Source: Tannockella kyphosi (lineage in GTDB: Bacteria; Bacillota_I; Bacilli_A; Erysipelotrichales; Coprobacillaceae). Taken from it: a DNA stretch of 32,000 nucleotides. The notes beneath the pieces were generated by a model that saw only the letters and a program-made list of their open reading frames with translations, did no database searches and was not told where the DNA came from. The stretch is taken from positions 660,001 to 692,000 of the forward strand of contig NZ_CP088239.1 of the NCBI RefSeq assembly GCF_021054785.1. Direction: 5' to 3'. A program made the position numbers and the translations under genes. Numbering within the stretch: position 1 is the stretch's first letter; each line of letters starts with the position of its first letter. Below, piece after piece: positions 28,292 through 30,670 of the stretch.

Positions 28292-28828
28292 ATGACAAAT
28301 GACGTAAAGAAACAATTCATACTTCATATTCCGTACCTTGTACTAGCACTATTCTTTACTAAAGTGTCGCAGGCTTGGAGATATGCAAGTGGTATTGATA
28401 TAGGACAAAAGATTTTAGGATATATGGACGGATTTAGCCTTGCCTTTCAAAATCCGTTCCCCTCATTTAATCCCACAGACTTAATGGTGGGATTTTTCTT
28501 CGCAATCGCTATACGACTGTTTGTTTATATACGAAGTAAAAGTGCGAAGAAATATAGAAAAGGTATGGAGTATGGCTCGGCGAGATTTGGAACACGGAAC
28601 GATATAAAACCTTATACCGATCCAGTATTTGAAAACAATGTTATTCTCACCCAAACAGAACATTTAACCATGAACAATCGCCCAAAAGATCCAAAAACAG
28701 CAAGAAATAAGAATGTACTTATTGTTGGTGGCTCGGGTAGTGGTAAAACAAGATTTTGGCTAAAACCAAACCTTATGCAATGCCACAGCTCCTATGTAGT
28801 TACTGATCCAAAAGGTTACAATATATAA
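28292..28828 (+). pseudogene. VirD4/TraG-type type IV coupling protein gene, truncated after ~175 codons
   Basis: AAGGAGGG RBS. Two N-terminal TM segments are followed by GSARFG and Walker A VGGSGSGKTR, then SYVVTDPKG. The frame stops three codons later, whereas family members are about 600 aa. The break abuts the serine recombinase gene. Confidence 0.8.
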
Positions 28829-28870
28829 GGACAGAGAAAGTCCAATCAAAGACGAAAGGAGGAAAAAACA

Positions 28871-30670
28871 GTGGCAAAATCAAGCAATATCAAGGTTACA
28901 GCATTGTATACTCGTCTATCTCGTGATGATGAACTGCAAGGCGAAAGTAACTCTATTACCAACCAAAAGGCATATTTAGAAGAATTTGCAAAGCAAAACG
29001 GATTTAATCGCATAGTCCATTTCAGTGATGATGGTTATTCGGGAGTTGACTTTAACCGACCTGCGTTTAAGCAGATGATTGCAGAGGTCGAGAAAGGCAA
29101 TGTGGCACAAATAATTTGTAAAGACCTATCTCGTTTCGGAAGAAATTATCTAAAAGTAGGCTTTTACACCGAGATAATGTTCCCTGAAAAAGATGTACGA
29201 TTTATCGCTATCAACAATGGAGTAGATAGCAGTAAGCAAGAAAGCAATGATTTTACACCTTTTTTGAACATAATGAATGAATGGTACAGCAAGGATACAA
29301 GCAACAAGATTAGAGCAGTATTTAAGGCTCGTATGAAAGAGGGCAAGCGTTGTAGTGGTGCTATTCCGTATGGCTTTTATCGTAAGGCAGACGATAAAAA
29401 TACCCTTTATGTTGATGAAGAAGCTGCAAAGGTGGTAAAACAGATATTTCAGATGATAACAGAGGGATATGGAGTTAATCACATAGCAAGAACATTGAGC
29501 GAAAATAAAGTGCTTATTCCATCAGCTTACGCAGAACTGAACCATCCTAGTGATTGCCGAAGTAATAGCTATCAAGACCCTTACAAATGGTCGTCTACTG
29601 CTGTCAGCTACATTCTTCAAAAGAGAGAATATATGGGGCATACAGTGTTAGGTAAGACAATTTGTGAGAACTTCAAAACAAAAAAACGCAGAAAAGCCAC
29701 CGAAGATGAACTAATCATCTTTGAAAATACCCACCCTGCTATTGTGTCAGAAGAAACATGGCACAATGCTCAAAGACTTAAACGCAAAGTTCGTAGAACT
29801 GTGAGAAACAAACCACTTTCACACTTGTTATCGGGAGTGCTATATTGTGCAGATTGTGGTGCTAGAATGACATACAGAAGTCCCGAAGCCAATCACAGAA
29901 AAGATGGAAAAACATACGACAGCGACAGTGCTTTTGTTTGTGGCGATTACAGAAATTTGCATAGAAATTGCACTATCCATTTTACCAAAAGTTCAGCGAT
30001 TGAAACTTTAATCAAGACAGCAATTTCAAATGTAAGCACCTATGTTTTAACTGATAAAAAAGAGTTTATAGAGCGAGTAAAACTGTTATCAGATACACAC
30101 CATGAAGAACAAACCAAGAGTGATAAAAAGGAACTTGCCACAGCCAAAAAGCGAATTGCAGAACTTGATTTGCTTGTGAAGAAACTCTACGAGGGCAATG
30201 CCATTGGCAAGATACCAGATAATCATTTTGAAAGGCTACTTGCTGATTATGATGATGAACACCAAGCCTTAACTAATAGAATTGCAGAGATAGAAACAGT
30301 TGTAAATGAAATTGCATCGCAGACAGTAAAAACAGATAAGTTCATTGCACTTGTAAAAAAATACAAAGACTTTGATGAACTCACACCCACAATTCTAAAT
30401 GAATTTATAGAAAAAATTATCGTTCATGAAGCTACTGGTGGACGAACAAGATTAAGACAACAACAGATTGATATTTACTTCAACTTTATTGGTAAATTTG
30501 AACTTCCACAAGTGGAACTTAGTGAAGAAGAATTGGTCGCACAAGCTAAAGAGCGAGAAAGAATTGTCAAAGATATTGAAACCAATCGACGAGAAGCGAA
30601 GGTGCAAAAAGAACGCAAAAAAGCAAAATTATTAGAAGAAGCAAAACAAAAACTTGATAAAGGAGCATAA
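28871..30670 (+). CDS. Large serine recombinase (TnpX/TndX-like)
   Basis: GTG start after AGGAGG. The resolvase catalytic domain reads [11 protein letters not shown]...[12 protein letters not shown] recombinase domain, a zinc ribbon (CADCGARM...[11 protein letters not shown]) and a long C-terminal coiled coil follow. Confidence 0.9.

Follow-up and report, generated by a model that had tools for sequence, protein, structure and literature searches.

A probable Tn6104-like mobilizable element in the coupling-protein gene of a Clostridia-type ICE of Tannockella kyphosi

Overview

The window, by which we mean the whole stretch of 32,000 nucleotides analysed here, closes within an IME that probably belongs to the Tn6104 or 'IME_traG_site1' kind, occupies a specific site within the T4CP gene of an ICE of Clostridia type, and follows an excision-repair and split-promoter scheme. 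A preliminary description, made from the sequence, had proposed that a mobilizable element with a TnpX-like large serine recombinase (SR) sits within an ICE, inside its T4CP gene, and the gene content, the left junction and the ICE backbone all support it. Nesting of this kind is already published, as is, since 2017, the idea that excision repairs the T4CP gene. The accepted picture is unchanged, and the switch idea discussed below is already in the literature. Whether an ICE can spread, along with any cargo, is decided by IMEs that occupy its coupling-protein gene, and the window copy is a well-defined example beyond the streptococci and C. difficile. The features are as follows.

14172-28282, + strand: left part of the host ICE, encoding ParA, ParB, DUF6017, DUF3846/PcfM, DUF3801 (pcfB-like), a 901-aa surface protein and Tad/Flp-like pilus proteins (Pfam)
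28292-28828, + strand: 5' stub of a VirD4-type T4CP gene, 178 codons, ICE-derived up to 28815; the final three codons (YNI) and the stop belong to the inserted element
28814-28815, no strand: putative crossover dinucleotide GG (attL core), the first two bases of the Gly175 codon
28816-28870, + strand: IME left end (attP-derived arm), with a TACAAT -10-like hexamer (28817-28822), an inverted-repeat arm GGACAGAG (28829-28836) and an AGGAGG RBS, followed by a GTG start
28871-30670, + strand: large SR, 599 aa, with Pfam Resolvase, Recombinase, Zn_ribbon_recom and DUF4368, a TnpX-like domain set
30675-31064, + strand: TnpV homologue (Pfam TnpV, E 3.9e-35)
31141-31440, + strand: DUF3847 protein, a putative relaxosome accessory (Pfam DUF3847, E 2.5e-8, under the gathering score)
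31441-31609, + strand: hairpin-rich, oriT-like spacer of putative function, with a 23-nt-arm inverted repeat at 31536-31585
31610-32000 and running off the window, + strand: 5' part (130 codons) of a MobQ (MobA/MobL) relaxase gene (Pfam MobA_MobL, E 3.3e-44; NCBIfam MobQ)

The host ICE

GC content rises near 14 kb, from ~0.28 to ~0.36, and the visible 14 kb of the ICE form a string of ORFs without breaks. The Tad/Flp-like block encodes a prepilin peptidase, RcpC/CpaB, a CpaE-like protein, a CpaF/TadA-like ATPase, two membrane proteins and DUF4320. ICEs of the Tn1549 family and Tn5252 superfamily carry the module pcfB(DUF3801)-virD4-maff2-virB6-virB3-virB4 together with a MOBP relaxase (PMC12084326). 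DUF3801 and the virD4 stub are both present here, about 10 kb apart, with the ICE genes that follow virD4 beyond the window end, and the ParA-ParB-DUF6017-DUF3801-T4CP backbone is common to many Clostridia loci and ICEs. A look-up of the 157-aa upstream neighbour returned a single 1-kb contig.

As a separate observation, the host ICE appears to split the sporulation gene spoIVA. The possibility that ICEs of this backbone generally target spoIVA was rejected, as none of the related loci had a piece of SpoIVA upstream.

The coupling-protein gene is broken at Gly175

The T4CP ORF encodes two hydrophobic (TM) segments and the Walker A box GGSGSGKT, and its translation terminates with ...SYVVTDPKG-YNI-stop, three codons past SYVVTDPKG, just as first described. 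T4CP coding in the window is thus confined to the first 175 residues. Pfam T4SS-DNA_transf aligns with the stub at profile positions 38-80 of 468 only, and the NCBIfam model 'VirD4-like, CD1115 family' at positions 1-61 of 442 only, with 78 bits against a cut-off of 250. Since both profiles are covered only at their starts, the ORF is a 5' fragment. The complete T4SS-DNA_transf/TraG-D_C nucleotide-binding domain that a VirD4-type T4CP requires is not present, as the domain halts at profile position 80 of 468.

The comparison with uninterrupted homologues, which the preliminary description had suggested as a check, shows that 54 of 80 homologous T4CP genes are intact, encoding 568-641 aa and reading ...DPKG(S/T)I..ECG across the site; the 178-aa stub is therefore not the native form. 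Over residues 1-175, identity between the stub and the intact homologues is 62-75%, the best T4CP match in a scan of GTDB genomes being 75% identical. Nor is the truncation a chance event, because dozens of related elements break otherwise intact 568-641-aa homologues at the same codon. The bare length of the ORF is all that would speak for a natively short protein of 178 (or ~175) aa, or for an assembly or frameshift artefact, and we give this reading practically no credence: it is refuted, on the sequence evidence, by the length of the homologues (568-641 aa), by the similarity to them stopping exactly at residue 175, and by the sequence from 28816 onward, which is element sequence that recurs identically in other contexts.

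Gene content of the element

The SR gene reads inward from the junction, starting 42 bp past the T4CP stub and 55 bp from the left end of the element. A large SR at one element end is a trait of traG-targeting IMEs, and both the Pfam domains and this distance agree with it. The active-site motif, as read from the sequence, is YTRLS(17)RDD, with S17 as the putative nucleophile. The early assignment of a TnpX-like large SR directly behind the stub is borne out by this ORF and its four domains, and that of TnpV, DUF3847, an oriT-like region and a MobA/MobL relaxase downstream by the Pfam and NCBIfam matches and the inverted repeat. In the relatives, the DUF3847 gene always directly precedes the MobQ gene, and a long inverted repeat of different sequence occupies the equivalent place. 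The relaxase fragment is 99% identical in DNA to loci whose full gene encodes 485 aa. The visible part of the IME is its left ~3.2 kb, the remainder lying beyond the window end.

The 130-aa relaxase fragment retrieved only short fragments at no more than 69% identity. P0257, which represents the relaxase cluster, led to a single contig of 1.7 kb, and DUF3847 to contigs that were short or carried a different recombinase. Against plasmids, megablast gave no match to the element, while tblastn with the SR gave relatives of at most 46% identity, with no annotated TnpX reference among the matches. In a metagenome scan, the closest SR was 65% identical.

Site specificity and the crossover dinucleotide

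Sixty SR relatives of at least 50% identity were chosen from metagenomes by SR similarity alone. In 56 of them the SR gene lies directly after T4CP residue ~175, and pooling of all loci gives 60 of 65. Of the 14 relatives with a resolved right junction, 13 continue the T4CP gene beyond the insert, in register from residue 176; in L143, the gene jumps from residue 175 to 314 across one element, which represents a deletion. The nine inserts that were measured span 8137-10174 bp, and the measured relatives include L062, which is a complete Chakrabartyella piscis chromosome; its SR and that of the window share 80% identity. The complete L062 element showed no T4CP or VirB4, and none was present among the gene calls on a second relative, L169, whose element ends are unmapped. 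Both encode replisome-organizer and DnaC-like proteins, and L169 also a TnpW homologue.

The identity of an SR to that of the window tracks its insertion site: at least 50% at residue 175, 43-49% at about residues 317-331, and ~36% at about residue 97. The metagenome loci thus present three distinct occupied sites in one T4CP gene, each with its own integrase clade, and one locus (L102) contains three IMEs in a single T4CP gene. At every junction that was read, the SR gene points the same way as the T4CP stub and starts about 40-125 bp behind it.

The crossover dinucleotide, which the preliminary description had left to be defined, appears to be GG, with the window copy at 28814-28815. No other dinucleotide is invariant at both attL and attR throughout the nine complete pairs; the bases 5' of GG follow the host in attL, and those 3' of GG follow the host in attR. 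GA, or any other dinucleotide, was rejected, as the dinucleotides next to GG are not the same in the attL and the attR of a given insertion. In the nine complete relatives, attB, once rebuilt, encodes ...DPKG(S/T)... in frame, and the target consensus is GAYCCNAAR-GG-N. Judged from these junctions, the integrases recognise a conserved protein-coding motif with high site specificity, and such T4CP-motif integrases may interest builders of serine-integrase tools.

The window shows the attL copy of GG only, with the right junction beyond its end. By analogy with the measured relatives, the full element of the window copy would be about 8-10 kb. Its right end is expected to read ...CTTGAC(A/G)AAAYGCTTCCNAARGG, or in extended form ...TCTGTCTTGAC(A/G)AAAYGCTTCCNAARGG, followed by an in-frame T4CP 3' part of about 415 codons. 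The predicted circular joint is ...CCNAARGG joined to TTACAATATATAAGGACAGAG, and the predicted repaired site ...GATCCAAAAGG-N-AGY/ACN..., that is, ...ACTGATCCAAAAGG followed by N.

Recent movement of the element

Eight other contigs carry an exact copy of the SR (100% identity), and the left end of the IME is identical in all eight, across three different contexts. The 100%-identical SR and left end occur in a second T4CP gene of a different ICE, whose stub is 67% identical in protein sequence to that of the window, and also in an AIM24-family gene that is unrelated to T4CP. Since the same element is found in a divergent T4CP gene and in an unrelated gene, it has moved recently. The same IME also lands outside ICEs, in the loci L003 and L132. 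Among the relatives, the motif TA(C/G)A(A/C)T...GGA(C/T)AGA is kept at the left end.

A predicted promoter split between the element ends

The reconstructed attP sites read TTGAC(A/G)-N17-TACA(A/C)T in nine of nine relatives, as a match to the promoter consensus, and the window holds the -10 half (TACAAT, 28817-28822). A consensus scan of 28100-29000 found no promoter-like or terminator-like site on the + strand. On this consensus match, the element ends, once joined, are predicted to form a promoter facing the SR gene, as published for TnpX of Tn4451, where the tnpX promoter is borne on the circle according to the title of Lyras & Rood 2000 (PMC13023037 ref 38). No excised-circle (attP) junction was found in the fetched loci and viral contigs. 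The target consensus, the attP with its predicted split promoter, the three sites with their clades and the proof of recent movement provide experimental handles.

Proposed mechanism and alternative readings

The IME would comprise a large serine integrase, TnpV, DUF3847, an oriT and a MobQ relaxase but would not encode a mating pore. By comparison with the relatives, the integrase would recombine within the conserved TDPKG motif, which lies shortly past the Walker A box, at the GG of its Gly codon. Because the role of VirD4 is essential, neither the ICE nor the IME would transfer as long as the inserted IME splits the T4CP gene. Precise SR excision would rejoin ...DPK-GG-N and restore the reading frame, as the attB reconstruction shows for relatives and as published experiments have shown for Tn6104. 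Integration would split the integrase promoter, with the -35 (TTGACA) at the right end and the -10 (TACAAT) at the left end; with its halves at opposite ends, the full promoter would exist on the excised circle only, where it may drive re-integration after transfer. Transcription of the ICE conjugation genes would read into the integrase gene, since this gene lies 42 bp behind the stub, points the same way and is separated from it by neither a promoter nor a terminator, and could trigger excision. An on/off switch for conjugation is thus plausible and has some support from the promoter layout; it has already been published (PMC5357655 section 25; PMC5704250 section 3.5). A bolder reading, which we consider possible but doubtful, is that the integrase is hard-wired to ICE transcription: being without a -35 in the integrated state and 42 bp behind the stub, it would be expressed only when the ICE conjugation operon fires, so that T4CP repair and the conjugation of both elements would make up a self-timed switch and, with the apparent split of spoIVA, the locus would combine gene switches of the serine-recombinase type at three levels.

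The T4CP gene could instead be merely a conserved, host-neutral landing pad for a pure parasite, with excision rare and uncoupled from ICE induction and with silencing of the ICE as the net effect. We regard this as a minority possibility, though one to be taken seriously. It is in line with Tn6103, for which transfer was undetected when it carried Tn6104, Tn6105 and Tn6106 (PMC3158075), with the up to three IMEs in one T4CP gene (L102), all of which would have to leave at once, and with the landing of the same IME outside ICEs. However, Tn6104 does excise and regenerate its target (PMC3158075), and the constant co-direction of the SR gene behind the stub and the lack, in the window scan, of a promoter of the SR gene's own suit read-through from the ICE operon. 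It is distinctly less probable that the ICE is permanently dead, that is, that insertion at Gly175 was followed by loss of the 3' part of the T4CP gene, or of a larger portion of the conjugation module, leaving the IME to rely on other helpers. Recombination between two IMEs within the same gene is one route to such a loss, the jump in L143 is an example of one, IMEs of this kind are common in decayed ICEs (PMC5357655, section 25), and the right side of the window copy lies beyond the window. Against decay stand the in-register resumption in nearly all relatives with a resolved right junction, the unbroken ORF string of the visible ICE and the recent mobility of the element. The excision-repair reading is the one we prefer.

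Comparison with known systems

The closest counterpart is Tn6104, which lies in the T4CP gene (ORF 1743) of Tn6103, is bounded by a 2-bp repeat, and has been demonstrated to excise with regeneration of its target (PMC3158075). The window element resembles it in the inward-reading TnpX-like SR at the left end, in TnpV, in a mobA/mobL relaxase gene of the same orientation, in its location, by the left junction, inside the T4CP gene of an ICE and, going by the relatives, in a 2-bp repeat at the ends; the replisome-organizer and DnaC-like genes were seen only in the relatives L062 and L169. The comparison covers gene content and arrangement. Tn6104 differs in that the host here is Tannockella kyphosi, of the Erysipelotrichales, and in its length of 15.6 kb, with two-component, ABC-transporter and sigma-factor cargo, as compared to 8-10 kb for the measured relatives.

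IMEs in traG of Tn5252-superfamily ICEs have also been described (PMC5357655, PMC5704250). Among these, the streptococcal IME_Sco1050_traG_site1/_site2 and Class_IME_5 combine a serine integrase with a Rel_PF03389/MobQ relaxase, as the window element does, and have no T4CP (PMC5357655, PMC5704250), in line with the relatives L062 and L169; they use the same target gene at more than one site. The hypothesis published for them that conjugation induction leads to IME excision and to restoration of the coupling protein is that considered here. Their hosts, however, are Tn5252-superfamily ICEs of Streptococcus, in contrast to the present Clostridia-type ParA/ParB/DUF6017/DUF3801 ICE with its Tad-like pilus block. 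The third site (about residue 97) and the triple occupancy in metagenome loci also go beyond the two, at most, that are mentioned in the review.

Tn4451/Tn4453 (TnpX, TnpV, TnpW; Clostridium perfringens / C. difficile) share the recombinase domain architecture including DUF4368, as well as TnpV, as judged by domains; the TnpW homologue of L169 is a further likeness, as are the 2-bp crossover and an integrase promoter assembled on the circle only, which is predicted here and stated for Tn4451 in the title of Lyras & Rood 2000 (PMC13023037). Unlike Tn4451, which has a MobV (TnpZ) relaxase and little target specificity, using many GA sites (PMC5704250, Table 1 for the target), the window element has a GG core, a high specificity for one T4CP codon (56 of 60 among the SR relatives) and a MobQ relaxase, and so lacks both the MobV and the GA/low-specificity traits.

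A further parallel is offered by skin in sigK and SPbeta in spsM (PMC4191935, PMC5025042), in which a gene that is required only under special circumstances is split by a large SR element and made whole again when this excises precisely. There, the gene is a sporulation gene of the host, under developmental control and with a known directionality factor, whereas the gene split here is part of another mobile element, and its control is putative.

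A mobilizable element interrupts the coupling-protein gene

The preliminary description proposed that a mobilizable element (IME) with a large serine recombinase (SR) is nested in the VirD4-type coupling-protein (T4CP) gene of a conjugative host element (ICE). This observation is real and its interpretation correct, and all the claimed features were found in their places:

28292-28828, + strand: T4CP stub ORF, 178 aa, with two hydrophobic segments and the Walker A box GGSGSGKT
28871-30670, + strand: SR, 599 aa, with Resolvase, Recombinase, Zn_ribbon_recom and DUF4368 domains
30675-31064: TnpV
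31141-31440: DUF3847 protein
31536-31585: oriT-like inverted repeat with 23-nt arms, within the 170-bp spacer between the DUF3847 and relaxase genes
Running past the window end: MobQ/MobA-MobL relaxase, first 130 codons

The stub ends in ...CHSSYVVTDPKG-YNI-stop. It matches Pfam T4SS-DNA_transf at profile positions 38-80 of 468 and no further, and the NCBIfam 'VirD4-like, CD1115 family' at positions 1-61 of 442 alone (78 bits, cut-off 250). Given that the matches are confined to the starts of both profiles, the ORF represents the 5' fragment of a T4CP gene. The SR gene follows after 42 bp, in the same orientation. Its domain set indicates a TnpX-type large serine recombinase architecture, and reading of the sequence revealed the motif YTRLS(17)RDD.

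The conserved position of an inverted repeat before the relaxase gene fits an oriT, as judged from sequence. The repeat at 31536-31585 contains a core hairpin (31549-31572) and was flagged as terminator-like. The relatives bear a long inverted repeat with different arm sequences at the same position, and a small GGGGAG...CTCCCC hairpin upstream of it.

Related T4CP genes are split at the same codon

Using the 175-aa stub as the query, with one genome per species, we retrieved 80 homologous loci with 62-75% identity. The T4CP ORF is intact in 54 of them (568-641 aa), with ...TDPKG(S/T)(I/V)..ECG spanning the site. This comparison with uninterrupted homologues contradicts the possibility that a short protein of ~175 aa is the native form. 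The ORF reaches the contig end in 11 loci, stops within a few codons of DPKG in six (L059, L062, L069, L077, L079 and L080) and stops at another position in nine. Five of the six DPKG-truncated loci have an SR relative (48-100% identity) immediately downstream, while the sixth, L079, is too short for SR scoring and has a similar-looking left end.

A metagenome search with the SR as the sole query yielded 80 loci with 50-65% identity. Of the loci whose upstream sequence spans 350 nt or more, 56 of 60 have the SR directly behind T4CP residue ~175 (60 of 65 SR genes in the pooled loci). The right junction is contained in 13 loci, in all of which the T4CP is in register at residue 176; the element measures 8137-10174 bp in the nine from which both junctions were extracted. 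Chakrabartyella piscis BP5G (L062, a complete chromosome) has an SR with 80% identity to that of the window right after T4CP residues 1-175. Behind this SR lie TnpV, DUF3847, a MobQ relaxase (83% identical over the 130 residues in the window), a small resolvase, an IS30-like transposase, a replisome organizer and a DnaC/IstB-like ATPase. The T4CP picks up at residue 176, 9230 bp further on, and the Pfam coverage is unbroken: the window stub covers the profile up to position 80, and the 3' fragment of L062 covers it from 78 on. The junction sequences thus argue for insertion, rather than deletion, in the related loci. In L143 (4734-15064), a single SR/TnpV/MobQ element lies between T4CP residues 3-175 and 314-586. 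The missing residues 176-313 appear to have been deleted, perhaps when IMEs at sites 1 and 2 recombined with each other.

Across loci from metagenomes and genomes, the T4CP gene serves as a landing pad with several sites: insertions lie at residues ~97, 175 and ~317-331 (L102, L121, L062, L097, L106, L158, L051 and L038). The SR identity to that of the window is ~36% at residue ~97, at least 50% at 175 and 43-49% at ~317-331. L102 harbors three IMEs inside one T4CP gene, and L062, L097, L106, L121 and L158 harbor two; a review of such IMEs mentions up to two sites.

The crossover dinucleotide and the joined ends

At the left junction (attL), the bases through ...CCN-AAR-GG vary with the host, and the sequence is element-constant from T-TACAAT on. 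At the right junction (attR), ...CTTGAC(A/G)AAACGCTTCC(G/T)AA(A/G)GG belongs to the element, and the following base (C, T, G or A) is host-variable. Since GG, which opens the Gly175 codon, is the sole dinucleotide identical at both junctions in every pair, we infer from these attL/attR pairs of relatives that the crossover dinucleotide, which the preliminary description had left to be defined, is the GG at 28814-28815. Rejoining of the host halves restores ...S-S-Y-V-V-T-D-P-K-G-(S/T)-I... in frame, and the reconstructed joint of the element ends (attP) has imperfect inverted arms, TCTGTC...GACAGA.

In L062 and in the attR sites of L106-type elements, the right element end mimics the T4CP before the core (T-L-P-K-G vs T-D-P-K-G). 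In L062 (19696-20412), this end also provides an ATG, in frame and 15 codons upstream, from which translation could yield a 3' T4CP fragment devoid of TM segments and Walker A.

A putative promoter split between the element ends

Each of the nine reconstructed attP sites has TTGAC(A/G)-17 nt-TACA(A/C)T across its joint, directed into the SR gene, with the -35 from the right element end and the -10 from the left (in the window, TACAAT at 28817-28822). In the integrated form, ATGTAG from the T4CP coding sequence lies 17 nt upstream of the -10 and matches the -35 consensus at two of six positions. The scan detected no promoter-like or terminator-like + strand sites in 28100-29000, and no terminator-like ones on this strand between 24.4 kb and the beginning of the SR gene. 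Those that it scored on the + strand within the Tad genes (~22.2-24.4 kb) are weak, and hits overall are about as numerous as expected by chance. The integrated SR gene may rely on read-through from the T4CP operon of the ICE, a dependence that would tie excision of the IME to induction of the ICE.

Relation to known elements

The nested arrangement is of an already published kind, and the element itself is a new example. In Clostridioides difficile R20291, the CTn5-like ICE Tn6103 carries Tn6104 inside its ORF 1743. Besides a TnpX-like recombinase gene, Tn6104 has TnpV and mobA/mobL genes, with a 2-bp repeat at its flanks; its excision forms a circle and regenerates the target, and Tn6103 transfer was undetected, 'possibly because of the insertion' (PMC3158075). 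Coluzzi et al. described an IME class with a serine integrase and a MobQ relaxase, without a coupling protein (PMC5357655), and proposed that induction of conjugation leads to IME excision, restoration of the module and transfer of both elements (PMC5357655; PMC5704250). With these precedents, the structure and the 'switch' idea of the preliminary description agree with published knowledge. Tn4451 proper has a MobV relaxase, a GA core and low target specificity, whereas the window element has a MobQ relaxase, an inferred GG core and high specificity. Our analysis adds a defined GG core, a putative split promoter, evidence that the element moved recently, and a strict specificity for one codon among T4CP genes whose identity to the reference homologue is only about 48-88%.

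Recent movement and module exchange

The SR (100% aa identity) and left end are identical on eight other contigs, in three contexts: the window-type T4CP (L004, L005); the same codon in the T4CP gene of another ICE, from a Clostridia MAG (L001/L077), with a stub protein 67% identical to that of the window; and the look-alike site GAATGGAAAGG in an AIM24-family gene (L003, 384-443). Further off-target sites of the same or related elements, again ending in AARGG, occur in L132 (near 9870) and L140 (near 9870), where the L140 target gene encodes the T4CP-like motif ...SSYVLTEGKG. These sequences indicate that the element moved recently.

The region from TnpV to the relaxase (30656-32000) is 99% identical to L169 (9516-10860), L170, L172 and L173, where a different recombinase of 618 aa precedes two DUF6809 genes. 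A 99% identical TnpV-DUF3847-oriT-MobQ module beside a different recombinase shows that mobilization and recombination modules have been swapped between elements, and recently. Further on, L169 encodes TraX, a tyrosine recombinase, a replisome organizer, a DnaC-like protein and TnpW. The second MobQ relaxase of the T. kyphosi genome (P0265), outside the window, is 65% identical to the L169 relaxase, which in turn is ~99% identical in DNA to that of the window over their overlap; P0265 probably belongs to another related IME elsewhere in the chromosome.

The host ICE and its apparent chromosomal site

Tannockella kyphosi belongs to the Coprobacillaceae (Erysipelotrichales), and the genus has been reported from a fish, Kyphosus sydneyanus, in which it occurs in the hindgut. 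A 128-aa ORF at 13435-13821 matches Pfam SpoIVA_ATPase at positions 1-99 of 237 (E 1.8e-44), and passes into unrelated sequence where the ICE genes and higher GC start (junction near 13727-13740, GC step near 14000). Given that the partial match ends at this boundary, the ICE itself appears to split spoIVA, and there appear to be three nesting levels: an IME in the T4CP gene of an ICE in spoIVA. None of the related ICE loci showed a SpoIVA fragment upstream, and spoIVA is not among the targets in the surveyed literature on sporulation-gene intervening elements.

The genes upstream of the stub are ICE-like (ParA, ParB, DUF6017, DUF3846/PcfM and DUF3801). DUF3801 and the T4CP gene are immediate neighbors in nearly all relatives, with DUF3801 coming first; a ~10-kb block separates them in the window (18764-28282) and, among the relatives, in L084 only. 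The block encodes a 901-aa Listeria-Bacteroides-repeat surface protein, Tad/Flp-like pilus components (prepilin peptidase, RcpC/CpaB, a CpaE-like protein and a CpaF/TadA-like ATPase), two TadB/C-like membrane proteins, DUF4320 and a 157-aa protein. In L084, the TadA-like protein is 75% identical and the T4CP is intact, with 606 aa.
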